Positions 3,097-39,275 of a DNA stretch of 39,275 bases are shown piece after piece. Position numbers and translations under genes: made by a program. The notes under the pieces were generated by a model. That model was not told the DNA's origin and did not search any database. It worked only from the letters and a program-made list of their open reading frames with translations. Each line of letters begins with the position of its first letter. Position 1 is the first letter of the stretch. This stretch comes from a virus: positions 1 through 39,275 of the IMG/VR virus record IMGVR_UViG_3300033144_002476; one strand, 5' to 3'.

Positions 3097-4623
3097 TTAT
3101 ACACGTTTCTCCTTATTTAAATTTTGGGAAATTGCTTTAAAATTCTCTGGATACTCTTCTGCATATTTTGTCATACTTAATTCGTTATCATCAAGAATAA
3201 CTACTTTTGGTTTATCATCCGTAGATTTTAGAATTTGCGAACCGACTGCTGCAATCACATTAGTAGTAACTGCATTTCCCATTTGTTTATATCTTTGTGT
3301 GTCACTCATTTTAACCTTCTCTCCTTTTTCGTTAATTCCATATTCGTTCCAATCATCTGGGAATCCTTGTAGTCTACAACACTCGACTGGAGTGAGTCTT
3401 CTGATTGAATATCCTGCATATCCGACTTCTGGTGTTCTTCCACTTCTGAGACAGCTTCTATTATCTCTTCCGTCTCTAAGCATGACTCCATGAATATCTT
3501 GTCCGGTAACTGTAAAACTTGGTTCTCCTGGTTCCTTAAATCTTCTTCCATTTTGTCGTTTATTGATTCTATCTGATGTAAGGACTGCTCTGATTCTAGG
3601 AGTGTAATCTCCTGAGAGTTTACTTGCTCCTGCAAGTGTTGGACAGATTCCATCTGTTTCATAGATTCTTCCTTGCTGGAATTTATCTTTTTTGAAGCAT
3701 TTAATAACTGCTGGTCGTTCTTGTTTGCTTCCGAGTCCTTTGTGGTACATGGTGTCGAGGCAGTTTGATTGTTCGACTCTCCTTGCTCCTGTTGTAGCTG
3801 AGAGAAGAATCCCTTGTCCTTTGTCCTTGACAGGAGTTTCTGACATGTCGTATCTGAAAGGTAATATTTCTGGTCTACTTGTTCCTCTAAGATTTCCGAT
3901 AATGAGTACCCTCTCTCTGTTCTGGGGAACTCCGAAAAATTTGCTGTTAAGTACCATCCATTGAATTTCATACCCCAATTCATCCAACGTTTGAAGGATG
4001 ACTCTAAAAGTCTTCCCTTTGTCGTGATTGAGTAAGCCTTTGACGTTTTCGAGGAGTATAGTTTTAGGTCTTTTAACTTTAAGTATTCTCGCAACTTCAA
4101 AAAACATTGTACCTCTAATGTCTTCAAATCCTCTCCGTTTTCCAGCGATTGAGAATGCTTGGCAAGGAAATCCTCCACAGAGCATATCAAAGTCTGGTAA
4201 TTCTTCTGGTTTGATTTTGGTACAGTCTCCGTAGTTTTTAATTCCTGGGAATCTGTATCTGAGGACTTGACTTGAGTATTTATTGAACTCTGACATACCG
4301 ATGCAGCGATATATGGCATTTGACTTTGGCTTGTTGATAATGCCCTGTGTATTCCTTTGTCCGATAGTACCCTCTCCCTTGGAAGATAATTTCCCTTTGG
4401 CCTTGGTTCCTCTGGTATCACTGCTATTGTTTGCACTTTTAAATCCGAGTTCAAATCCTCCGACTCCTGTGAACATGCTGAAGTATCTGATAGTATTACT
4501 TTGTGTGGGCTTCTGTCTAGAGCGTAACAGTGTTCCTTGCTTATCAGAGGACCTGTTCTTCCCTTCCCAGTCTTGCTCGACCTTGGAAAGTGATTTAGAA
4601 TTATTGGTTCTTTCATTGCTCAT
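3097..4623 (-). CDS. dcm: DNA (cytosine-5)-methyltransferase
   Basis: Motif I FTGVGGFELG, IV GGFPCQAFS, VI ENVKGLL, VIII QNRERV, IX RRLTPVECCRLQGFP, X QMGNAV. The likely start is ATG 4623 after GGAGGAGG; the track ORF extends to 4689. Confidence 0.9.
   Translation of the reverse strand: MSNERTNNSKSLSKVEQDWEGKNRSSDKQGTLLRSRQKPTQSNTIRYFSMFTGVGGFELGFKSANNSSDTRGTKAKGKLSSKGEGTIGQRNTQGIINKPKSNAIYRCIGMSEFNKYSSQVLRYRFPGIKNYGDCTKIKPEELPDFDMLCGGFPCQAFSIAGKRRGFEDIRGTMFFEVARILKVKRPKTILLENVKGLLNHDKGKTFRVILQTLDELGYEIQWMVLNSKFFGVPQNRERVLIIGNLRGTSRPEILPFRYDMSETPVKDKGQGILLSATTGARRVEQSNCLDTMYHKGLGSKQERPAVIKCFKKDKFQQGRIYETDGICPTLAGASKLSGDYTPRIRAVLTSDRINKRQNGRRFKEPGEPSFTVTGQDIHGVMLRDGRDNRSCLRSGRTPEVGYAGYSIRRLTPVECCRLQGFPDDWNEYGINEKGEKVKMSDTQRYKQMGNAVTTNVIAAVGSQILKSTDDKPKVVILDDNELSMTKYAEEYPENFKAISQNLNKEKRV
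3306..4616 (-). CDS. 436-codon ORF embedded in the +1 frame of the C5-methyltransferase gene (candidate overlapping gene)
   Basis: ORF track. ATG 4616 overlaps the TGA of the upstream SWIM gene (ATGA). It is the only same-strand embedded ORF >=60 aa in the window. The product is Ser/Glu/Gln/Lys-rich. Confidence 0.4.
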   Translation of the reverse strand: MKEPIILNHFPRSSKTGKGRTGPLISKEHCYALDRSPHKVILSDTSACSQESEDLNSDLKVQTIAVIPEEPRPKGNYLPRERVLSDKGIHRALSTSQSQMPYIAASVCQSSINTQVKSSDTDSQELKTTETVPKSNQKNYQTLICSVEDFLAKHSQSLENGEDLKTLEVQCFLKLREYLKLKDLKLYSSKTSKAYSITTKGRLLESSFKRWMNWGMKFNGWYLTANFSEFPRTERGYSLSEILEEQVDQKYYLSDTTCQKLLSRTKDKGFFSQLQQEQGESNNQTASTPCTTKDSEANKNDQQLLNASKKINSSKEESMKQMESVQHLQEQVNSQEITLLESEQSLHQIESINDKMEEDLRNQENQVLQLPDKIFMESCLETEEIIEAVSEVEEHQKSDMQDIQSEDSLQSSVVDYKDSQMIGTNMELTKKERRLK

Positions 4624-5047
4624 GTTCCTCCTCCTTCTTCGCTTTGTGGACAGAAGATGAAGAGCACCCGTCAATCCTACTAACTTCATCGCAATACAAA
4701 GGGTTCGTCAGGGTGCTCTCTTGTGCACGTCCACCACTCTCCGATTTAATCAAAGAGTGCGTAGTTTTGATAATATCTGTCTCTTTTTCTAATATTCCAT
4801 ATTCTTTAAGAATCTCTAGACACTTGTTTATGTGTTTACATTTTCCTTCTATTTGTTCTCCACGAAATTGAAAATGTGGACAAGTGCATGACATGTTTGT
4901 TATTCCTAGTTCGTTTAGTCTGTCTATGTTTATTTCTACTTCATATGGAGCTTTTTCTTTTTTAGATCCGTGAACTATGAACTCGAATACTTCTGAGTAG
5001 TCGTCTAGTTCTTTGCTTGCTTTTATTCTAAATGGTTGTATTTTCAT
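4613..5047 (-). CDS. SWIM-type zinc-finger protein
   Basis: CTCPHFQFRGEQIEGKCKH matches CxCxnCxH. The likely start is MKIQPF at 5047 after an AAAGGAGA SD; the track ORF extends to 5149. Confidence 0.6.
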   Translation of the reverse strand: MKIQPFRIKASKELDDYSEVFEFIVHGSKKEKAPYEVEINIDRLNELGITNMSCTCPHFQFRGEQIEGKCKHINKCLEILKEYGILEKETDIIKTTHSLIKSESGGRAQESTLTNPLYCDEVSRIDGCSSSSVHKAKKEEEHEQ

Positions 5048-6995: not shown

Positions 6996-7133
6996 CTATA
7001 TAAACCCTTCGGTTTGTGAATAATACTCTTTTAATTCTTCTAAAAACTTCTTATGTTCTCTTTCCTCGTCGCTGTTACGTTCCCAGAATGGTTTATGATT
7101 CCAGAAGTAGTCAAATATTTGTTTAGGATTCAT
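6996..7133 (-). CDS. hypothetical protein (45 aa, below track cutoff)
   Basis: Hand translation MNPKQIFDYFWNHKPFWERNSDEE... The ATG overlaps the 3' end of the GIY-YIG ORF. Confidence 0.4.
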   Translation of the reverse strand: MNPKQIFDYFWNHKPFWERNSDEEREHKKFLEELKEYYSQTEGFI

Positions 7134-7431
7134 TATATTCCTCGATTAATTTTAGTTTTTTATTAAGTGATAATCTTTTTATTTGCATTTCTCTTTGATG
7201 TGCTGTGTATGGATTGTCGAATGATTCCATATAAACAAAGTGAAGTGGGTTTATTTTATTTCTCATATAATTAGAACGAATACCAGAACGATGCTCAGCA
7301 AGTCTTCTCTTTGGATCCCATGTCATGCCAGTATAATATATTATTTTATCATAAACAAATTCTTTAAATCTCCGATTATAATAATATTTCTCTGCTTTCA
7401 ATATATAAACGTAGTATGTTCTTGACACCAT
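7123..7431 (-). CDS. GIY-YIG nuclease, small YhbQ/UPF0213 (URI-domain) type
   Basis: YYVYILKAE...IIYYTGMTWDPKRRLAEHRSG...FVYMESF...AHQREMQIKR matches the GIY-YIG core pattern. Confidence 0.75.
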   Translation of the reverse strand: MVSRTYYVYILKAEKYYYNRRFKEFVYDKIIYYTGMTWDPKRRLAEHRSGIRSNYMRNKINPLHFVYMESFDNPYTAHQREMQIKRLSLNKKLKLIEEYNES

Positions 7432-7440
7432 TGTTTCCTG

Positions 7441-7973
7441 TGGAACTTTTAACTTTCATCTCCCCCCACGCACTCCTCATCGGTTGGAAACCGAGTGAGT
7501 AGCGCTCCCCCCTCTACGGACTTTGGCTACACACGAAGGTTTTGAGTGATTTCATTGTTTTTATTAAACAATCTTTCTTCAAATCGTGGTTTTATGTAAG
7601 TCTAACATTCACTTTAGTTAGGATTAATCGCCGTTGGTCTCCAGTACTCCTACTTTCATTGATTATCGACTGGCATAGTCATGCTGATTCACAGATTATT
7701 TAACCGTTTGTCCTTAGTCTTGGACTCTACCTAATGCCTTTCGACTCGGTAAAGTGCTTGATAAGATTTCCAACCTTATCTTCGAGAGTAGGATCTCCTA
7801 ATCTGCTTCACTTACTTAATCCTCCAGCCCCGCCTCCCACTGGTATCTATCGCTACATTATCTTCGTTGTCGGAAGTCATATTGTAAGCACGGGTTAGAG
7901 CAACACCAAACACGCATTGCTAGAAATCGCTATTGAGGGTGGTTTTCATCGGACAATCGTTACTGCCTCACCT
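7441..7973 (-). ncRNA. candidate large structured non-coding RNA (class unknown; comparable in size and phage context to ROOL/GOLLD-type RNAs)
   Basis: No ORF >=60 aa in any frame. About 43% G+C by hand count against AT-rich flanks, with G>C on the minus strand. Several nested helices can be drawn. A TTTATATA box lies 22 nt upstream. Confidence 0.5.
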
Positions 7974-7995
7974 CAAATATAATAAGAAAAATAAA

Positions 7996-8003
7996 TATAT
8001 AAA
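7996..8003 (-). promoter_or_regulatory. TTTATATA box upstream of the candidate RNA
   Basis: Minus-strand TTTATATA is followed by 22 A/T-rich nt, then the GC-rich structured segment begins at 7973. It can also be read as TTTATA-N16-TATATT. Confidence 0.35.
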
Positions 8004-8017
8004 TGTTTGTATTGTGT

Positions 8018-8464
8018 TTAAATCAAAATTGCTTCAACTTCTGTATCTTCATCTTCATCAAAGATTACTTTTACGTTGTAAATCTGTTTCTTAGATTTAG
8101 AATCTTCTTCATCAAATCTTAATCTAATCTTAAAGTCTATTGTAGTTTTCTCATCTTCATATGAAACGTTATGGTCGCTGTATATTCTACTAACTTCCAT
8201 TTCATCAAAATCATATGTACCGAGTACATCTACATTGTTACCAGCTTCGTCTTCCTCGTCTTCTACAGCTTGTAAAAATTCAGCAACAGCCAAATCTAGT
8301 TGACTTACTGCTGGTACATCTACATACTCAGTAACGGAGACATTCTGGTATTCTACGATAGGATCAACTACAGGACAGTCTTGTTCGGGAGTTAGTACCA
8401 CTCCACCTAGAGCTCCAACGAGCAAACAGATTGCCATTAAGATTGTTGCTAATGTATTTTCCAT
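8018..8464 (-). CDS. membrane-anchored acidic protein (148 aa)
   Basis: N-terminal hydrophobic segment LATILMAICLLVGALGGVVL followed by a D/E-rich domain. GGAGGT SD. Confidence 0.65.
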   Translation of the reverse strand: MENTLATILMAICLLVGALGGVVLTPEQDCPVVDPIVEYQNVSVTEYVDVPAVSQLDLAVAEFLQAVEDEEDEAGNNVDVLGTYDFDEMEVSRIYSDHNVSYEDEKTTIDFKIRLRFDEEDSKSKKQIYNVKVIFDEDEDTEVEAILI

Positions 8465-9551: not shown

Positions 9552-12500
9552 TTAAATTGCTTCACCCAATGAATTTGCTGTATATTCTACAAATTGCCCT
9601 CTCATATGTACTGCATCAGAAATTGTATCTTGAACATCTCCGCTTAATCTTGTAACTTTCCAAAAAAAAGCTTTATCTGTTGCACTTGGTAAATCAATTC
9701 CGGGAACTTCTGCGACAATTAAACCATCACTTGTTGCCGACGCTGTGCTTACTATTGTTAAGGTTTCCTGTGCTCCGGCAGTTACATCTTCGTTAGGACT
9801 TATCCATAAATATTCTAATTGCCATTTACAATTTCCCGGACTAATTCCGTTAGCGTGCCACCCAATATTTAAAGTTATTGGGATAGTTATATCTATGTCG
9901 GGGGGGATTAAGAAAGTCCCACTTACACTTTCTTGATTAGCTTCTATTGCGTCTGAAAATTCCCAACAACCAGTTAATCCATCCTCAACAAATGTTGCAG
10001 GTTTTGCTCCTGGGGCTCTTATTCCATTAGCACCAATATAAATTTTCTTTTTTACCCTCGCTGTTCCATGCAAATTTATCTCTCCGTCTGATTTTATTTC
10101 TGTATAATTTACTGCTCCGCCAATATTAGAAGCACTAAAACTTGCACTTCCATCAGTAAAACTAACCCAAGCTACACCATTATCTCCAAATCCGGGAGTT
10201 TGAGCAGAACCTTTCCAAACAAATTTTCCAACTTCATTAATAAAATTATATCCACTTCCAAAACCAATGTGACTCCACCGAGCAGAACCACCAACTCTAT
10301 TTGGGGGGCTATCAACATTTCCTTTTAAATATAAATGCTTTTGAGATAATTGGTCATCATTTACAACTAAAGCACCACCAATTTCATTATCTCCTTTGAT
10401 TTCTCCTGTAACTGTTAAATCTGTTGATGTTCTAATATCTCCATTAACATCTAATTTATAAGCAGGATTATCAATACCAATTCCAACATTTCCACCCTCT
10501 TCCCACACCATAACATTAGCCACACCGCTTTCAGTTAAACTTAATCCTGTTCCAGTAATAGCACCAAAATGCCAATCAGGATTAACATTATCATCTGCAA
10601 AATATAAAACATCTCCTATTTGAACTCTTCCAGCAACATCTAATTTATGAGTCCCTATTGGGCTTGTTCCTATTCCAATTCTATCAAATTGTCCTGTTCC
10701 GGTAACATTCAAATCTCCCAAAACATCTAAACGATTACTAACATCAATAATCCCATTAGTCCCATCAGAACTTATCTGTAAGTCTGTGTTAGTCGTTCCC
10801 CATTTAGAGATAATATTATCCCCCCCCATAAAATTATCTGTTTGAGAATATAATCCCCAGTTATTTGTTCCTTTTGTTTGTCCAGCGTCATAAAAAGCAT
10901 ATTGATTTGCTATTGCATAATTTCCACCAGTTCGTGCATCATCTGCATAAAAAGCATATCCGTTTCCAAAGATATTTGCAGTTCCTGTCCCAGGACCACC
11001 TGCACCTACTGCTTTTATTCTACTAAAATATCCAAATATATTTTGTCCGTAGTGTGTTAAATCATCATCATCTTCTAATTCTAAACCAACTTCTGCAAAT
11101 CCTCCAAGTAAATTAGAGGCAGCAGCACCAGACCCAACATTTGCAGGAGGTGTAAATGTCGCAGAAAACTTAACTCCATAACCAAAAGCTAATGAAGTTG
11201 AAGTATTAGAAATAAAATCATTTTGAATACCTGCTCCAACATTCGTTGTATCTGTTGTAAAAGGATTATTAATCCCAACACCCTCTGTAATACTTCCCCC
11301 ATTAAAAGCACCTTGTCCTGCTGTTATATCTCCAGCCCCAAAATCCCAGTCTCCTGTCATGCTCCCGTCGGTGATTGTGTTAGTGCCGAGGTCTAAAGTT
11401 GTTGCATTAATTGTTGTTGCAGAAAAATCATGACTCCCCAAATCAACATCAGTCGTCGCACCAGTATAAGGAACCAAATCAGAAATTGCTGTGCTTGAAA
11501 ATTCTAAAGCAGTTCCACCAGTATTTTCTTGAAGTAATCTATTAGTTGAAATAGTATAAGCACTAGGTGTATCTGTTAATCCTAAAAATGTTGTAATACC
11601 GCTTGCTCCTGCGCCTGCTCCTGCTGTTGTATTTGGTAAAAAACCTCTTAAATCTTGAGTTTCATATAGACTCCAAACTCCACCAGTATTGACAAAAGTA
11701 AATCTTGCAATCAAAAAGCCTACTCCTTGAAAGGCTTTAGGGATTGTATAAACTGAACTTGCCCCTGCATCTACTACTGCTTGTTCTGGGAAGTTTTTAT
11801 TATAAGTACCGATTGGCATATTAGCCATTAAATGTGATGGTTCACCACTTTTATTTGCCGTTCCCCATACAACTACACTAAAACTTGTATTAAGTAATGG
11901 GTCTCCAACTGCATCGGTAGTAATATCTGATAAATCTAACACTTCTGTGTAGGATCCGGCAAAATCATTAACCACAATAACATGGTCGCCTATTGTATCT
12001 CCAGGAGTTGCACTTGGAATTACTTCTTCTACGGTAATAATAAAATTAGGGTCAGACCAAATAGTACTTACCACAGTATATAATCCTTCATTACCATTAA
12101 CTCCGTGAACATTAATTGTTTTACCTTCTGGGAAAACGTTTGTTAAATCTCCATCTCCACTAATTGTGAAAGTTTTATTTCCTTGATTAACCGCGTCTAT
12201 AGTATATTGAGTCATATCCTGCAATGGAAAAGGATGTCTATGCATTTGATAAATAACACCAGAAGTATTTTTTATCCAAACTTCGTCTGCTGGTCCAATG
12301 TCTACTGAACCTTCACAGCCAGAATCCCACTGTGCTTCGAATTGTCTTAACTTTTCTCCTATATGAGATAAATGTCCTTGGTTAGAAGTAGTATCCTGAA
12401 TCTCATCATTCCAATTCTGATTTCTTAATGCGCCCTCTGTTTCTGTTGTTGCAGCAGTTTGTAAGAAAACTTGCGCAACTTTAATATGTTCAAAGGTTGT

Positions 12501-16327: not shown

Positions 16328-16343
16328 ACTTTTAAAACCAACG
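16328..16343 (-). promoter_or_regulatory. conserved box CGTTGGTTTTAAAAGT (minus strand)
   Basis: Starts directly after the stop codon of 16344..16592 and lies 35 nt upstream of the portal ATG. One of five near-identical copies. Confidence 0.6.
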
Positions 16344-20550: not shown

Positions 20551-20918
20551 CAGATTCCTCCTTCAAATAAAGTAAGCGTATAACCTAGTTTATTTATGTC
20601 TGCTGCCTGTTTATTCCACGAAAAGTTCTGTACAAGTACTGAATAACTTGCTGGACTTGTAATAAAACTAGATACAAAAGTTGAACCATCTTGTGCTCCG
20701 TTTACTATGGCTTCTATGTTTGCTATAAAAGTTTTCTGTGCTGCTTCAGTTCCTTCAAATATTCCAGTAATTGTAATAGTTCTTAATACTCCAAATAAGT
20801 CTATTAAAATAGCATCATCGCTATCAGACCTAGGGAGTGGTGTCTGAAATAAACTAGAATCTTTAGTATGGTCTTCGGATTGAATATCACCAAGATCTAC
20901 ACTATCTAATGTTGCGAT
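20550..20918 (-). CDS. tail component (122 aa) with no canonical start codon; proposed ATC start
   Basis: Stop-free frame with no in-frame ATG/GTG/TTG. AAGGGGGA lies 4 nt before ATC-GCA. Its TGA shares an A with the ATG of the next gene (TGATG). Confidence 0.6.
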   Translation of the reverse strand: MATLDSVDLGDIQSEDHTKDSSLFQTPLPRSDSDDAILIDLFGVLRTITITGIFEGTEAAQKTFIANIEAIVNGAQDGSTFVSSFITSPASYSVLVQNFSWNKQAADINKLGYTLTLFEGGI

Positions 20919-26365: not shown

Positions 26366-27364
26366 TTAACTTTCGTCAATAAAGGTATCACCATTAACAG
26401 CATTCGATGGTTCGACTGTTCCAATCCACTCTACACTAGTAAATCCAGAAGGTCTAGCTGTACCTGCGGTGCTACCATGATTAATATGCCCCTTTACATT
26501 TGTTTTAGTATATGAAACTTTATCATTAAATGTATCCCAATCTGTATCAGATAATGCTCCTGTTGTGCTTGTAGAAGATAAAGCCATACTTAATGCTTGA
26601 GTAGATAAAGATAATCCATTTGCTGTTCCAATTGTTACGGCACTATGTAATGTATCTTTTTGGGTTTGTGTTATATGTTCGTAACTTGTTCCGTCATTTA
26701 AACCTGCTAAAGAATTATGTGCAAAATCTCCCGCAGAATAAGTAGTATTTGTATAATTTCCTGAATGAATGTTTGTTGCTCCTTGGTCTGAAGTCCAGTC
26801 TATTATTTGATTTGCCGATAGTGTTGCTTGAAAGCCTGTATGTCCTGCGCTTGCATAATCTAATTGAGAAAAAGAAGCATGAGCCGTCGTGTTGGTGTCG
26901 GTATAATTAGCAGCATTAATAACTGCTGGGCTTTGGTCGGCTGTCCAATCAACTTCGACATCTTTAGTGAATCCCATCGTTGAAATATCACTTTCACTTA
27001 ATTGTGTATTCGTATCTGTATAATTAGCAGCATTAATATTAGTTGCGCCCAAATCAGTTGTCCAGTCTAAATGTTCATTTGCACTAACTCCGCTTAAATC
27101 ATCGTGAGTAAAATCTGAACTTACTTGGTCATCACTACCTGGAGCGTGTCTATCTGTTGTGTTAGCATCTACATCAGTATTATTACTTACTTCTGTGTCA
27201 AAGTCTGTTACTTGAGAAGCTGTTAAAGATAGATTATCTTGAATGTTTTTATAAGTGATTTTCTTGTTAGTAGCTGTGCCACTTACGTCGTCTACTATGG
27301 TAAGTAAATCTGCATCTACTGGGGTTGTTAATTCATCTAATGCAGTGATTTTCTGATTTGCTAT
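26366..27364 (-). CDS. fibre-like protein (332 aa) lacking a canonical start; proposed ATA start at 27364
   Basis: The frame is open 104 codons upstream of the track TTG (27052). The extension reads IANQKITALDELTTPVDADLLTIVDD..., typical of fibre N-termini. The DWT.D...N..NYT repeat spans the TTG. Confidence 0.6.
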   Translation of the reverse strand: MANQKITALDELTTPVDADLLTIVDDVSGTATNKKITYKNIQDNLSLTASQVTDFDTEVSNNTDVDANTTDRHAPGSDDQVSSDFTHDDLSGVSANEHLDWTTDLGATNINAANYTDTNTQLSESDISTMGFTKDVEVDWTADQSPAVINAANYTDTNTTAHASFSQLDYASAGHTGFQATLSANQIIDWTSDQGATNIHSGNYTNTTYSAGDFAHNSLAGLNDGTSYEHITQTQKDTLHSAVTIGTANGLSLSTQALSMALSSTSTTGALSDTDWDTFNDKVSYTKTNVKGHINHGSTAGTARPSGFTSVEWIGTVEPSNAVNGDTFIDES

Positions 27365-27477
27365 TTTTTAACCCCTAGAATCTTACTTACTTCAGTCTCT
27401 TTGTAAAACTCTCCATTTTTAATATTCTTTCTTGCGTCGTTAATTTCTTGTATTGTTTTGTTATTTAGTTTTTCCAT
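27361..27477 (-). CDS. mini-protein (38 aa, below track cutoff)
   Basis: Hand translation MEKLNNKTIQEINDARKNIKNGEFYKETEVSKILGVKK. No SD. ATG lies 21 nt after the TTTTAAAA of the conserved box. Confidence 0.45.
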   Translation of the reverse strand: MEKLNNKTIQEINDARKNIKNGEFYKETEVSKILGVKK

Positions 27478-27496
27478 AGTCTTATTTATTTAAGTT

Positions 27497-27512
27497 TATT
27501 TTAAAACCAACG
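27497..27512 (-). promoter_or_regulatory. conserved box CGTTGGTTTTAAAATA
   Basis: Directly after the stop of 27513..27902. Confidence 0.6.
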
Positions 27513-30399: not shown

Positions 30400-30669
30400 T
30401 TATCTGAAGATAATTAATCCGCTTGCTGCTGTTGCTGTTGCGCTTGAAAGTGTGATTACATTAGTCGTAATACCACTAACTACATTAGCAACACCATCTG
30501 CATCAGTAGTTACATCTGCGAATAAAACTTCATTAGCATTTGTAACAGTCCAAGTATCGTTCTGGGCTCCGTATGCACCACTATCAATGAAACCTAGCTT
30601 TAAACCAGCGTTTGTTGCTCCACCGAGTTCTGCTATCCTTATTGCTACTACATTTGTGTTTGTTGTCAT
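30400..30669 (-). CDS. decoration-like protein, paralogue 2 (89 aa)
   Basis: Aligns along its full length with 30689..30955 (MxTNTNV..RIAELGGATNAG.K.GFIDSGA..AQNDTWTV.NA...GLIIFR). Confidence 0.6.
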   Translation of the reverse strand: MTTNTNVVAIRIAELGGATNAGLKLGFIDSGAYGAQNDTWTVTNANEVLFADVTTDADGVANVVSGITTNVITLSSATATAASGLIIFR

Positions 30670-30688
30670 TTTTTGTGTCTCCTTTTAG

Positions 30689-30955
30689 TTATCTGAATAT
30701 GATTAGTCCACTTGTTGCACCAGTTGCTGCTGATGTAAGTGTCAAAACATTATCTGAGATAGTGACTGCCTCTGCTGTGCCGGCTGAGTCGTCTTTTATG
30801 AATGCTGCCAAAACAACTTTAGCATTTTTTACAGTCCAAGTATCGTTCTGGGCTGCTTTTGCTCCGCTGTCTATAAATCCCATTTTAATTCCAGCATTTG
30901 TAGCTCCGCCTAACTCTGCTATTCGTCCTGCTGTTACGTTTGTATTTGTTGCCAT
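30689..30955 (-). CDS. decoration-like protein, paralogue 1 (88 aa)
   Basis: Immediately downstream of the major capsid gene. Tandem duplicate of 30400..30669. AGGAGGA SD. Confidence 0.6.
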   Translation of the reverse strand: MATNTNVTAGRIAELGGATNAGIKMGFIDSGAKAAQNDTWTVKNAKVVLAAFIKDDSAGTAEAVTISDNVLTLTSAATGATSGLIIFR

Positions 30956-31010
30956 TTGTATATATCCTCCTTTTGGGTGATTATAAAGTGCTTATCGCGC
31001 ACAACTCGCC

Positions 31011-34250: not shown

Positions 34251-34482
34251 TTAATAACCTCTTGCTTAATTCATTCATTAATTTTAATTTCTTGTTCTCA
34301 TGTAAATTATTAAACTGATTATCTCTTACTATTTCAAGATTTGAACGATTTATTACTGGGAAATTATTTAATGATACTTTTGGTGTATATCTTGATTCTA
34401 TTGGGTTACGCTCTTTGGAACAAGTTACCCCGTACTTATCCCATAACTTTGCATTATGATTTACATTAATTATAGTTTTCAT
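34243..34482 (-). CDS. hypothetical protein (79 aa)
   Basis: ORF track. ATGA overlap with the terminase stop. Confidence 0.55.
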   Translation of the reverse strand: MKTIINVNHNAKLWDKYGVTCSKERNPIESRYTPKVSLNNFPVINRSNLEIVRDNQFNNLHENKKLKLMNELSKRLLNG

Positions 34483-36980
34483 CCGAAGTTCATTACCACC
34501 TTGTTGTTATTCATTAATTCGAGTGCATAACCCATAGCGATAGGAATATCTGGATGTATTCCGGCTTCTACTAATTTTCCATCACTTAAAGCAAATGAAG
34601 TACATTCAGCTAATATTCTGTCTGCTCGTAGTTTGTCTTGTTCGGTTTTATATGGAATAATAAACTGTTTGTTCTCAAAAGCTGTGCCTAGTCGCATTAT
34701 TAGATTAATTTTACCTACTGTGTGACGTTTATTAGTCCAATCGTAATCTGGTTTAAGTCTTGCTGCTGGATCACTTGCGCTTGTCCAAAAAAGTGTTATA
34801 GGTAAATTCCATTGATTTATGTCTTTTGAAATAGCTTTAATTGAGTTTTCTTCTAGTCCTATCAAATCATAAGTATTAAGTGGATGGAGTGTGTCACGGA
34901 TATACTTCATTTGTTCATCTACACTCCACCCCTTTTCTTTTTGGCTCCCTAGCATATAAAAAAAGTCATCTTTACTTCCTAATCCAAAGAAAGCTGATTC
35001 GTCTGCTGTTACTCTATCACTGAAAGCAAAGTCTACTCCTAAAGTTTTCATTTCAAATTGCATCTCCTTAATATCTTCCGCACTTAAATCTTCTCTAAAA
35101 CATTGAGTTACCCATTCTCGTTTTATCAGACTAGATGTATTATCAATTGGATTATTAAGATATTCCTGTTGAAATGCCACAGAGCCTATCTCCTTTTTGA
35201 TTTTAGTTAGAATATCTTTTGTAAATCTGTCTTTCCAGAGTATATTATTCATGTTTTCATCACAGGCTTGAAATATTTTACCTTTACATTGTTTTATTTT
35301 AACCGTTAAAAGTGAATTTGGATGAAGTATAGTTCCAATCATTTTATATCTACCTTTAATATCAAGGCTAGGAATAATTACTTTATTTAACTTGTTTGAA
35401 TCTTTTACACGTAAATCTGGGTTAAGTACTCTTTGATCGTCTTCTACGTCATCTGCCACGATAAGCGTTGGTCTCATATTATTATATTTGAATCCTCTTA
35501 GATTTTTCTCAAAACTTACTGCTTCTACTCTACATCCACCTACATCGAAACAATCTTCACGGTCTTTTCCGAATTCATCTCTACTCTTACTTGGTGTCAA
35601 ATCTCCATAAACGAATCTTAACATCTCATTGTTTTTAAACTCATTTCTAATTGGATCAATGAACTGTACTGTTTTACTATGATTCTGACTTACATAGACA
35701 ATATACTTTTCAAGGTTATTCACAATGCAAAAGATTAGATATATTATACCTGTTACTGAAGAATTATGTGTTACCATATAATCATTTGTTATGAATGTAC
35801 CATCTCCTTCAACAGAGATACATCTTCCTATTGCTTCTTTCTCAAATGTAATATCTGTAATTGAAGATTTTGTTTTAATACTTCCGCGCCATATACCCCT
35901 TTTTCTTTTTAGTCTAACAGGGATTATTTCACTTGGGACTCTGCATGTAAGTACATAAGAATGTTTATATTCAGAATCTTTATCAAATCTTGTTAGTCTT
36001 TCTCCTACTGTGACTGTTCCTCCAAGTGATCTAATAAGTGCCACATAATCATCCTTTAAATTTTTCTTAGATGTAGCCAATCCAAATCTTTTACCACCCT
36101 TTTGCACATACCCATCAGAATCAACTAACCCTTGAAGCATGGACTCTCTTTGTTCTATTGATGCCGTCATGTACTCTGTTGGAATATGTTTATTGCCAAT
36201 TAGGTAAGATTGTCTTAATTCTTTATGCAAACCAAGAACACCATAACCATACTCAGCTTTATGTTTCGTAATCTTATAATCAAAATATTCAAATATCTCG
36301 GGATCACCTGTTGTTATTTGCCCAGATGATGAAGTTCCATCAGCTATCCAACAACCCAAAACATAAGGGTCTATGGGTAAAACTTTCTCATTAAAATCTA
36401 TTGGTTTACATGACGGTAAGAAATAGCGATATTCCGTAAACTCTTTATTACTTCGTTTATCAATTCTTTTTGACTTATAATTTTTCATTATATCTTGAGT
36501 ATATTTTGTAACTAATTTGTCTCCCGTATTTGATGGGCATTGAACCTTCCATAAATGTCCATCATTACACAACACGCTACGACCATCTCTTGTTTTAAAC
36601 CTAAATAATGGGACTTTTTTTATTGGATGTAATTGTATAACTTTTTTCTTCTTTCCATTCATACCATACACATAATCTCCGACTTTGAGTTCACTTAACT
36701 TTATCCATCCAGAAGGAGTTAAAATGTCAGAATCAAGACTCAGAAGCTTGGCGTGACCCCTTGGTGCTGCTAGTGCTCCATTTCCTGTGGAGAATAAGAA
36801 TTCGTATATTTCATGGTGAAAATCTGGTATTTTGTTTGTTACTGTCTCAGGAAACATTACTTGACTGAATACTGTTATGTTTTCTTTGAAACTGAAGATA
36901 TATCTAAGTACTTGTTTAAGTTCTTCTTGATCCTTAGTTGTTTCTATAAGGTTAACTACCTCTTCTTTTGTGATTTGCAT
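34479..36980 (-). CDS. terL: terminase large subunit, interrupted by an intein
   Basis: Extein: APRGHAK|...|SSVTG (split Walker A), LIVADDVEDD (Walker B) and a C-terminal nuclease-like region (GVDFAFS...). 833 aa including a 328-aa insert. Confidence 0.9.
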   Translation of the reverse strand: MQITKEEVVNLIETTKDQEELKQVLRYIFSFKENITVFSQVMFPETVTNKIPDFHHEIYEFLFSTGNGALAAPRGHAKLLSLDSDILTPSGWIKLSELKVGDYVYGMNGKKKKVIQLHPIKKVPLFRFKTRDGRSVLCNDGHLWKVQCPSNTGDKLVTKYTQDIMKNYKSKRIDKRSNKEFTEYRYFLPSCKPIDFNEKVLPIDPYVLGCWIADGTSSSGQITTGDPEIFEYFDYKITKHKAEYGYGVLGLHKELRQSYLIGNKHIPTEYMTASIEQRESMLQGLVDSDGYVQKGGKRFGLATSKKNLKDDYVALIRSLGGTVTVGERLTRFDKDSEYKHSYVLTCRVPSEIIPVRLKRKRGIWRGSIKTKSSITDITFEKEAIGRCISVEGDGTFITNDYMVTHNSSVTGIIYLIFCIVNNLEKYIVYVSQNHSKTVQFIDPIRNEFKNNEMLRFVYGDLTPSKSRDEFGKDREDCFDVGGCRVEAVSFEKNLRGFKYNNMRPTLIVADDVEDDQRVLNPDLRVKDSNKLNKVIIPSLDIKGRYKMIGTILHPNSLLTVKIKQCKGKIFQACDENMNNILWKDRFTKDILTKIKKEIGSVAFQQEYLNNPIDNTSSLIKREWVTQCFREDLSAEDIKEMQFEMKTLGVDFAFSDRVTADESAFFGLGSKDDFFYMLGSQKEKGWSVDEQMKYIRDTLHPLNTYDLIGLEENSIKAISKDINQWNLPITLFWTSASDPAARLKPDYDWTNKRHTVGKINLIMRLGTAFENKQFIIPYKTEQDKLRADRILAECTSFALSDGKLVEAGIHPDIPIAMGYALELMNNNKVVMNFG
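35763..36746 (-). mobile_element. intein with double-motif LAGLIDADG homing endonuclease; class-3 hallmarks
   Basis: Residues 79-406. Block B NDGHLW, LAGLIDADG motifs LGCWIADGT and LQGLVDSDG, block F RCISVEGDGTFITN, block G MVTHN followed by Ser+1. No Cys/Ser/Thr at position 1. Confidence 0.75.
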
Positions 36981-39059: not shown

Positions 39060-39275
39060 TTAACATAATGATAACTCCGCAGTTCTTTCGTGCATTGGTT
39101 TAATTGTTAAGTGTGGTATTTCTATCGGATAATCAAATTCATCGAACTTATCTTGTCTTTTGAAATCTGCTAAAGTTTGTTCCAGTAAATCCTTAAACCA
39201 TCTTACAGCTTTTTTCCTATTATCGAAGATTCCACAGGGTTCTCCGTTTCTAACTGCTACCCATTTTTTACTCAT
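39060..39275 (-). CDS. hypothetical protein (71 aa)
   Basis: ORF track. Its ATG and first 38 codons are the terminal repeat. After circularisation it is preceded by element copy A and a GGAGG SD. Confidence 0.6.
   Translation of the reverse strand: MSKKWVAVRNGEPCGIFDNRKKAVRWFKDLLEQTLADFKRQDKFDEFDYPIEIPHLTIKPMHERTAELSLC
39162..39275. repeat. Terminal direct repeat copy 2, identical to 1..114
   Basis: Compared base by base with the first 114 nt. Confidence 0.95.

Follow-up and report, generated by a model that had tools for sequence, protein, structure and literature searches.

The stretch of DNA analysed here, hereafter the window, is the whole of the IMG/VR virus record IMGVR_UViG_3300033144_002476 (39,275 nucleotides, nt), and the element in question is a large structured RNA encoded at about 7,488-7,975. 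Coordinates are window positions, and the RNA, its gene and every long open reading frame (ORF) of the window lie on the minus strand. An exact direct repeat of 114 nt is found at the termini (1-114 = 39162-39275) and, as the terminal bases are identical, the window is taken to be a complete, circularly assembled genome of ~39.2 kb. Matches to PHROG families were found for the large terminase, head protease, major head protein, minor tail protein, tape-measure protein, baseplate hub and portal. After these structural genes come a 1261-amino-acid (aa) tail-fibre-like ORF, several small ORFs and a 148-aa ORF. Past an intervening gap lies a run of small ORFs headed by a 102-aa GIY-YIG protein, followed by a winged-helix protein and a C-5 cytosine methylase. 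The gene order on both sides marks the gap as the boundary at which the late genes end and early-type genes start. The features at this boundary are as follows.

8018-8464, minus strand: 148-aa ORF, which ends the late structural block and precedes the RNA
7996-8007, minus strand: promoter-like TATA-type motif AACATTTATATA, the sole exact minus-strand copy in the window
7488-7975, minus strand: core of the RNA, from its inferred start to the end of segment B (nhmmer, covariation, no conserved ORF)
7123-7431, minus strand: stand-alone GIY-YIG nuclease gene, 102 aa (Pfam PF01541, E = 1.5e-10)

No other part of the window runs as far as this gap (7432-8017, 586 nt) without a minus-strand ORF of 40 aa or more. 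All six frames contain stops of each of the three kinds, and no frame is open on either strand. An earlier reading of the letters alone (the sequence-only reading) had placed a candidate large structured non-coding RNA here, on the grounds that the region is ORF-free, elevated in G+C and rich in helices. Its ORF-free gap was recovered and its hand counts were exact: G+C amounts to 231 of 540 bases (42.8%), and the minus strand holds 136 G and 95 C. The G+C content does exceed the 34.2% of the window as a whole, but coding parts (e.g. 3400-4800) also reach 41-43%. Gaps elsewhere in the genome had been put at less than about 140 nt, which does not hold, as two more ORF-poor gaps exist at 27053-27512 (460 nt) and 20551-20905 (355 nt). 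The first begins just after a copy of the late motif described below and contains only a 38-aa ORF, leaving ~300 nt; the second separates the tape-measure-like gene from that of the baseplate hub. Neither gap gave an Rfam match in the whole-window scan at the gathering score. Nor is the region helix-rich by energy: its minimum free energy is -134.4 kcal/mol, compared with -136.7 +/- 6.6 kcal/mol for shuffled sequences (z = +0.35), and the opposite strand of the gap region gives z = -0.17. Since the region is not special by folding energy, thermodynamics alone would not carry the case for an RNA. The sequence of the region is not an assembly artefact, because a 2.7-kb contig assembled independently from another sample (L002) is identical to it base for base.

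Conservation and covariation of the RNA

Homologous contigs were reached via relatives of the GIY-YIG protein and by exact-pattern scans with invariant stretches of the RNA. In this way 12 distinct homologous sequences, two of them cut by contig ends, were obtained from independent metagenomes and viral contigs. With the window (= L002) as query, the versions are L003 (= L017 to L019), L004, L005 (= L015), L014, L008 (= L009, L010, L016), L022, L024, L026 and L027. To these are added L023, cut by a contig end; L025, of which only the last 62 nt are present (nhmmer E = 2.4e-12); and the most divergent version, L042 (= L051). Collecting homologues with nhmmer, as the sequence-only reading had proposed, gave E-values of 1e-186 to 5e-32 among the versions that hold most of the RNA, and the homologues cover its whole length. 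Across the four closest versions the block is 85% identical. Conservation sets in abruptly at UUUGAGG, which is the inferred start of the RNA, while the sequence and genes upstream are unrelated. Several further pattern matches were discarded as due to chance, either on inspection or by nhmmer (L011, L012, L013, L021 and L020, the last inside a coding sequence of a Hydrotalea metagenome-assembled genome, MAG), as was a family of coding sequences (L031, L033, L044, L045, L048 and L049).

None of the homologous loci carries an intact ORF in place of the RNA. The longest stop-free stretch measures 33 to 89 codons, depending on the version, and is not always in the same frame, no reading frame is conserved, and the insertions and deletions within the RNA are not multiples of three. 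An alternative genetic code or a decayed ORF was considered and rejected, given three kinds of stop in all frames and no conserved frame. In every version of the non-coding block G exceeds C.

Support for a structured RNA on the minus strand comes from covariation among the 12 homologous sequences, which confirmed the central proposal of the sequence-only reading. In the core (73 pairs), 95.7% of cells are paired, compared with 83.8% in column shuffles and 36-42% in a control in which the 3′ partners were slid by 1-3 columns. Owing to the kinship of the variants the shuffle control overstates significance, and the slid-partner control is the fairer of the two. Double changes are seen in 32 of the 73 pairs (106 cells), against 5-12 pairs (8-19 cells) when the partners are slid, and none of 500 shuffles reached the observed value. 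For the 5′ domain (47 pairs, window-type sequences) 89.6% of cells are paired, with double changes in 17 of 47 pairs as opposed to 3-9 after sliding. RNAalifold predicted 137 pairs from six full-length versions, 47 of them with at least one compensatory double change, and 76 pairs from eleven versions, 33 of them with double changes. Moreover, nine pairs are G-U in nearly all sequences; these would be A-C mismatches on the opposite strand, which places the RNA on the minus strand.

That the helices arose by chance in a decayed gene or a neutral spacer is scarcely credible in view of these data. Such an origin would accord with the minimum free energy, which is no better than that of shuffled sequence, and with the other ORF-poor gaps of the genome. 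Against this, the conserved region is bounded by flanks that are not conserved, substitutions are concentrated in compensating pairs, insertions and deletions are out of frame, and no variant has a frame that stays open. Taken together, the comparisons establish a conserved, structured and strand-specific RNA of no known family, accompanied by a recurrent promoter motif at a recurrent spacing.

From 5′ to 3′, the RNA consists of a 5′ domain that varies between lineages, a central domain that a long-range helix closes, a linker, a variable hairpin and a 3′ domain, with about 20 helices in all. The framework helices stay in place while whole sub-domains are swapped between lineages. Upstream of the 3′ domain the following elements were recognised.

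7933-7976, minus strand: helix P1 (UUGAGGUG / CACCCUCAA), with changes from G-C to A-U and from G-C to C-G
7952-7967, minus strand: inner hairpin within P1, double changes in 4 of 6 pairs
7900-7920, minus strand: hairpin GCAAUGC / GUGUUGC, 3 of 7 pairs compensatory, absent in L014
7851-7890, minus strand: helix UGCUUACA / UGUAGCG with a hairpin at 7859-7879, double changes in 5 pairs
7824-7843, minus strand: hairpin CCAGU / GCUGG, double changes in 3 of 5 pairs
7816-7823 with 7620-7627, minus strand: long-range helix Ha, GGAUUAA / UUAAUCC, closing the central domain
7691-7806, minus strand: central sub-domain of five helices, its outer helix formed by 7799-7806 with 7691-7698
7672-7685, minus strand: hairpin AGCAU / AUGCC, double changes in 3 of 5 pairs, present in 11 of 11 sequences
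7630-7670, minus strand: three-helix arm GUCG/CGGC, UC/GA and AGUA/UACU with a GGAG loop, double changes in 6 of 10 pairs
7595-7606, minus strand: near-invariant linker GUUAGACUUACA, conserved in all variants
7554-7572, minus strand: variable hairpin AUUGUU / AACAAU, double changes in 4 of 6 pairs

The 5′ domain (7976-7824) comprises P1 with its inner hairpin and three more hairpins, and differs among the window, L008, L024 and L042 types. The P1 domain is swapped for other hairpins in the last three, and the GUGCC/GCGA flanks of the helix at 7851-7890 are kept in all types. Helix Ha exists in three complementary versions, namely GGAUUAA/UUAAUCC, UAUUAA/UUAAUA (L008, L022, L027) and GGGUUA/UAACCC (L042). 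Within the central sub-domain, double changes affect 7 of 8 pairs of the outer helix and 5 of 7 pairs of the hairpin at 7724-7755, and three strands are invariant (CUACUCUCGA, AUCAAGCAC and AAGACUAAGGAC). The interior of this sub-domain is made of other hairpins in L042, with the outer helix retained as CAAACA/UGUUUG. GACUU in the linker (7602-7598) is a tentative candidate for a pseudoknot with AAGUC (7523-7519), as a G to A change of the linker in L023 is matched by a C to U change in the partner, a single supporting event.

Four of the five helices drawn in the sequence-only reading are supported by the comparison, one of them being the 3′ hairpin treated in the next section. The one at 7933-7976 is kept with one compensatory change, the one at 7760-7780 is kept with a G-C to A-U exchange in 4 of 11 sequences, and the one at 7554-7572 always pairs despite entirely different stem sequences between variants. 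The long-range helix spanning 7665-7745 (GUCGA-GGCAU / AUGCC-UCGAU) had to be given up: 4 of 11 sequences have lost its 5′ strand, and its score is no better than that of shuffles. Its nucleotides form two local helices instead, which covary in all 11 sequences (7672-7685, and 7667-7670 with 7630-7633), the first of which competes with the long-range helix and displaces it. Two other pairings were tried and rejected. One, between CCCUCA of the 5′ domain and the 3′ G-run, was proposed by RNAalifold from six sequences, but the local P1 is preferred and has a compensatory change. The other is a pseudoknot of CUAAGGAC with GUCCNUAG, which is perfect in L022 and impossible in L042, where the first strand is missing.

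A separate observation concerns the first hairpin of the RNA in L024 (5504-5525) and L026 (100-120). This hairpin (CUUAAUUGUGAUGAUUAAG) holds GUGAUGA, the box C consensus of C/D RNAs, and might form a K-turn or K-loop to which the archaeal protein L7Ae could bind; its only return from Rfam is a weak snoRNA-like match (E = 0.58).

The 3′ end of the RNA

The 3′ domain and the sequence that joins it to the GIY-YIG gene are made up of the following segments.

7514-7543, minus strand: segment A (AAAACCUUCGUGUGUAGCCAAAGUCCGUAG), unchanged in 8 of 12 variants and more conserved than any other part of the RNA
7488-7505, minus strand: segment B (GCGCUACUCACUCGGUUU), almost invariant, pairing with A or with C
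7468-7485, minus strand: segment C (AACCGAUGAGGAGUGCGU), the 3′ arm of a 15-bp hairpin drawn in the sequence-only reading
7432-7467, minus strand: G-run at 7457-7467, then a short leader in which a UUCC-ACA-GGAA hairpin covers the AGGAAA ribosome-binding site of the GIY-YIG gene

The 15-bp hairpin (7470-7505) is kept by way of differing 3′ arms in all 11 variants in which the RNA is linked to a GIY-YIG gene, but it is only one of two exclusive pairings. Segment B can also pair with A, through AAACC/GGUUU, GUG/CAC and GUAGC/GCUAC, and because the same nucleotides are used the A:B and B:C helices are mutually exclusive. When folded separately in the 11 linked variants, A:B ranges from -12.7 to -20.0 kcal/mol and B:C from -16.9 to -22.9 kcal/mol. 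In L024, three substitutions in B are each compensated in A (CC to AU with GG to AU, and G to A with C to U) and are also compensated in C, which there makes a perfect 10-bp helix; this C segment likewise differs in sequence and still complements B. The C arms of L014, L008, L022, L023, L026 and L027 are different in sequence and register, and all of them pair with B. L042 keeps A:B (-16.4 kcal/mol) with AAACC/GGUUU replaced by AAAAC/GUUUU; its B:C pairing is weak (-8.9 kcal/mol) and it has no good equivalent of segment C. On this pattern of compensation, both alternative pairings of segment B are maintained in evolution. Folds of the whole domain with B:C formed also show CCUUCG, freed from A, pairing with the G-run after C, and a matching change is seen in L042 (U-G to A-U).

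This arrangement recalls a purely cis-acting leader, in which a giant riboswitch-like or attenuator-like 5′ untranslated region would respond to a ligand, protein or RNA and gate translation or processing of the early operon through the exchange of A:B for B:C. The RNA stands at the head of the early gene block, its two exclusive and energetically balanced helices are both kept by compensation, and in 10 of the 11 linked variants neither promoter nor terminator lies between the RNA and the first ORF (in the window, no promoter motif or terminator was found between the RNA and the GIY-YIG ORF). We nevertheless consider a role as leader only unlikely. L042 retains the RNA although the next ORF has its own promoter motif and there is no good C arm, and the downstream gene varies, being GIY-YIG, HNH-like or an unrelated ORF. 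In addition, an RNA of ~490 nt and roughly 20 helices far exceeds the sensor domains that are known, no U-rich terminator is present, and masking of the ribosome-binding site is conjectural.

The G-runs that flank the 3′ hairpin bear on another explanation, namely that the region gives rise to a replication-origin transcript, a structured pre-primer RNA like RNA II of ColE1. Its G-runs would form a lasting RNA-DNA hybrid, and the choice between its folds would determine priming. A transcript of ~0.5 kb from the main non-coding region of a circular genome, between late and early genes and with alternative conformations, would suit such a part. We hold it to be distinctly improbable, as the first G-run is not conserved (it reads GGAAAA, GGGAUA and GGGUAA in L005, L008 and L026), the cumulative GC skew has no turning point at the RNA, and neither iterons nor an AT-rich unwinding element were found. 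Dense covariation and invariant loops over the whole 500 nt also exceed what a primer needs.

Promoter motif, host and neighbouring genes

The sequence-only reading had noted the TTTATATA box, which is present at 7996-8003 and forms part of the promoter-like motif AACATTTATATA. From the 3′ end of this motif it is 21 nt to the first base of the RNA that is conserved. In the other loci a motif of the form AACATTTAT[AT][AT]A occurs once or twice per locus, and in every case 21 nt separate its end from a functional start: the first conserved base of the RNA (as in the window, L003, L024 and L042), the leaderless ATG of the first ORF after the RNA (L042), or position 1 of a transfer RNA (tRNA), i.e. 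its mature 5′ end (L052). An archaeal TATA box would be expected to keep such a constant distance, ~21-22 nt, from the starts of transcripts and from leaderless start codons. A sigma-70-like reading can also be made (TTTATA-16-TATATT, 8003-7976) and, as it exists, promoter evidence alone does not settle the host.

A second motif, GTTGGTTTTAAAA, has six exact copies, on the minus strand only and all within the structural genes, three of which lie 20-22 nt before a start codon. This distribution suggests a late promoter giving leaderless transcripts. The copies are located as follows.

16330-16342, minus strand: GTTGGTTTTAAAA
18239-18251, minus strand: GTTGGTTTTAAAA
24540-24552, minus strand: GTTGGTTTTAAAA
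24953-24965, minus strand: GTTGGTTTTAAAA
27499-27511, minus strand: GTTGGTTTTAAAA
33248-33260, minus strand: GTTGGTTTTAAAA

The slot of the RNA is shared with tRNA genes. Homologues of the 148-aa ORF are followed by the RNA in L042, by a tRNA-Met in L001 (3475-3551) and, in L052 (3577-3688), by a tRNA with ~40 extra bases in its anticodon loop (47 bits with the tRNA model of Rfam). This insertion is read as a short intron of archaeal or eukaryotic kind, and an intron-containing tRNA in the slot of the RNA suggests an archaeal host. The NCBI label of L052 is that of a Heimdallarchaeaceae MAG, and relatives of the terminase are labelled Woesearchaeota and Bacillota. The sequence-only reading had spoken of a phage; given the tRNA intron, the spacing of the motif and the MAG label, the virus is more likely to be archaeal, and an archaeal host is considered likely.

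The upstream neighbour of the RNA is in fact variable, and may be the 148-aa ORF, a DUF4190 protein or a tRNA-like sequence (L005). Just upstream of the RNA, five lineages show a conserved hairpin of the form GGGGUGA-~20 nt-UCACCCC followed by a T-run; it was located at ~10440-10500 (minus strand) in L008, 1-50 in L026, ~160-215 in L027, ~790-830 in L022 and ~5375-5440 in L024. In L027 it is preceded by a second copy of the promoter-like GGAAGTTTTAAA box. This hairpin could be a small RNA gene or a terminator of the late operon.

Downstream, genes begin at their own ATG. The GIY-YIG protein consists of a 78-residue catalytic domain alone, with no recognisable DNA-binding domain in its 102 aa. 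The gene is sporadic: it accompanies the RNA in the window and ten other variants, and is found in another context in L006, where a homologue 59% identical has no RNA upstream. Conversely, L042 has the RNA and lacks the GIY-YIG gene; there the RNA is followed by a second copy of the promoter motif and then by an unrelated 64-aa ORF. The GIY-YIG gene, whose start the sequence-only reading had taken as one boundary of the gap, is thus not an obligatory neighbour, and on present distribution it is separable from the RNA. In L022 the RNA and the GIY-YIG gene are separated by an inserted 97-aa HNH-like ORF (1320-1613; PF13392, E = 3e-5, slightly short of the curated threshold), which has a TATA-like box of its own. 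The spot behind the RNA seems to attract genes of homing-endonuclease type. Free-standing homing endonuclease genes of T-even phages are likewise sporadic and lie beside very conserved sequence. As only the catalytic domain is present, the GIY-YIG gene is no more than a candidate homing endonuclease gene. Two further ideas about this gene were discarded. An RNA-guided GIY-YIG nuclease is at odds with the occurrence of RNA and protein each without the other. A split nrdD or intron context for the L006 homologue (L006 1066-1585) is not borne out either, as its upstream gene encodes a DUF5906 primase-like protein; the 55-aa ORF downstream matches only the C-terminal glycyl-radical end of NrdD, the anaerobic ribonucleotide reductase.

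The nuclease genes raise the question of a catalytic or mobile RNA, i.e. a self-cleaving or self-processing ribozyme or a degenerate intron tied to homing endonuclease genes, which would either excise itself from the nuclease mRNA or be mobilised with it. Besides lying directly beside sporadic GIY-YIG and HNH-like genes, the RNA has a near-invariant and partly unpaired segment of 30 nt and invariant junction strands that resemble an active site, and alternative pairings are typical of ribozyme reaction cycles. We regard this explanation as improbable, however. No model of an intron or self-cleaving ribozyme matched at E <= 10, there is no exon continuity and the upstream genes differ among relatives, and L042 has the RNA without any nuclease gene. 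GACUA/UAGUC bears a likeness to group I P7, but the J8/7 strand is missing, a point that comes from reading the sequence and is not a test.

Two features elsewhere in the window were also recorded. The large terminase (34479-36980, minus strand) is 833 aa long and contains the LAGLIDADG homing-endonuclease domains PF05204 and PF14528; most of its homologues are ~505 aa long and align to only half of the protein. In view of these domains and of the shorter homologues, an intein is very probably present. A direct repeat of 148 nt (30524-30671 and 30810-30957), its copies 76% identical and 286 nt apart, occupies an ORF-poor stretch that precedes the major head protein gene.

Interpretation and comparison with known systems

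On balance, we lean towards the view that ~7975-7488 (minus strand) is the gene for a multi-domain RNA of ~490 nt with an autonomous core and a 3′ end coupled to downstream genes. The TATA-type promoter at 7996-8007 would transcribe this gene at the boundary of late and early genes. In the 3′ domain the near-invariant segment A (7543-7514) pairs with B (7505-7488), and the core itself would function independently, either as a ribonucleoprotein or as an RNA-only machine. Autonomy of the core is argued by L042, in which the RNA forms its own transcription unit and has no gene fused downstream. Elsewhere, in the window and ten further variants, transcription would continue into the mobile GIY-YIG nuclease gene, and read-through in most lineages may have added segment C (7485-7468), a competitor of the closing helix that would take B away from A. 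Two states are therefore envisaged, one with the core folded and C free, the other with the core opened and the B:C hairpin formed, and their exchange may couple the folding state or processing of the RNA to downstream expression. Action in trans, the interconversion of the two states and what the switch controls are predictions of this scheme.

Several points weigh against this view. The folding energy is no better than that of shuffled sequence, and the variants come from related viruses and count as about eight or nine independent lineages. Both ends of the RNA, and its stability, are predicted from sequence. A:B is supported chiefly by the lineages L024 and L042. In L022 segment C persists although the HNH ORF inserted there comes with a TATA-like motif, and this weakens the tie of segment C to read-through. 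No terminator was found after segment B, and the RNA of most variants may therefore occur solely as a 5′ leader. Finally, the binning-derived MAG labels of the relatives disagree with one another.

More tentatively still, the RNA could represent the first large ornate RNA class of archaeal, possibly Asgard, viruses, the first product of the early promoter and an RNA machine, whether a ribozyme or an RNA-only or ribonucleoprotein assembly akin to ROOL and GOLLD, whose two-state 3′ end would signal its folding to the genes that follow; this we rate as possible and doubtful. Few densely structured, conserved RNA classes above 400 nt are known besides ribosomal RNA, RNase P and introns; archaeal viruses are not known to have any, and every addition to the list has brought unexpected biochemistry. 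The locus provides a starting kit for further work: a defined promoter, a likely start site, ~20 helices supported by covariation, natural variants with swapped sub-domains, a version without the alternative hairpin (L042) and a competing pair of helices. If the host assignment is true, it would give a view of how archaeal viruses use RNA in early infection, in hosts that are possibly relatives of the ancestor of eukaryotes.

Known RNA families were compared with the window at several levels. At the gathering score, Rfam 15 (4227 families) gave no match in the whole window. An Rfam scan of the kind that the sequence-only reading had suggested, applied to 7100-8300 and to L004, L005, L014, L026, L027 and L042 at E <= 10, gave nothing meaningful, the returns being snoRNA- and miRNA-like noise far below threshold. 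ARAGORN found no tRNA or transfer-messenger RNA in the window or in 11 loci bearing the RNA. BLAST of the region and the surrounding 8.4 kb against GenBank phages gave no match, and a full-text literature search found the invariant sequence strings in no paper of the library covered. A bulk catalogue of viral candidate RNAs (PMC10690425) may hold fragments of the RNA as unnamed entries.

The RNA is similar in size to group I and group II introns and RNase P RNA, and like them has a multi-domain architecture. At E <= 10, neither the group I (RF00028) and group II (RF00029, D1-D4) models nor those of GIR1 and self-cleaving ribozymes matched. Unlike these introns, the RNA interrupts no gene: its upstream neighbours differ and the downstream genes have an ATG of their own. 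The P8-like candidate hairpin (7672-7685) abuts UAGUC with no J8/7 strand, unlike a group I intron, while the conserved block starts with GAGGUG and has no domain VI-like hairpin, unlike a group II intron. The archaeal and bacterial models of RNase P RNA matched neither in the window nor, at E <= 10, in the region and its homologues. The heptamer AAAGUCC resembles CR-I of RNase P, and GACUA...UAGUC resembles P7 of group I introns, likenesses that are not tests. In RNase P terms the CR-I-like heptamer is the only likeness and lies near the 3′ end instead of the 5′ end, and the order of the motifs fits neither family.

Riboswitch and attenuator leaders are alike in that one strand, B, has two partners of similar stability (A and C) directly upstream of a coding sequence. 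They are unlike in that the putative sensor is several-fold bigger than any known aptamer, and in that there is no terminator and no clear sequestration of a ribosome-binding site, the downstream gene varies, and L042 lacks the platform for the switch. For the GIY-YIG gene, the closest parallel is with the seg and mob genes of T-even phages, which are also small, sporadic nuclease genes in intergenic positions beside a very conserved gene, with the same spot hit here by an HNH-like gene; it differs from them in having the catalytic domain alone and no recognisable DNA-binding domain.

ROOL (RF03087) and GOLLD (RF01998) were named in the sequence-only reading as possible relatives, with a new class as the other option. 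As no covariance model matched, the RNA is a member of neither, and a new class fits; it is placed as a new class among the large structured RNAs of viruses, a kind already known. Both families often lie beside tRNAs. Like them, the RNA is virus-encoded, structured, of about 500 nt or more, and has many helices and conserved loops; it also shares its slot with tRNA genes (L001, L052), with a tRNA-like sequence just upstream in L005. With ROOL there is a further likeness, in context only, in that a tailed-virus genome has tRNA genes in the same slot. ROOL and GOLLD form oligomeric RNA-only complexes (PMC12286853). The RNA is unlike them in its probable archaeal host, as opposed to Firmicutes, in heading an early operon and in its two-state 3′ end. 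In size, ornate fold, viral home and exchange with tRNA genes, ROOL and GOLLD are its nearest analogues in kind.

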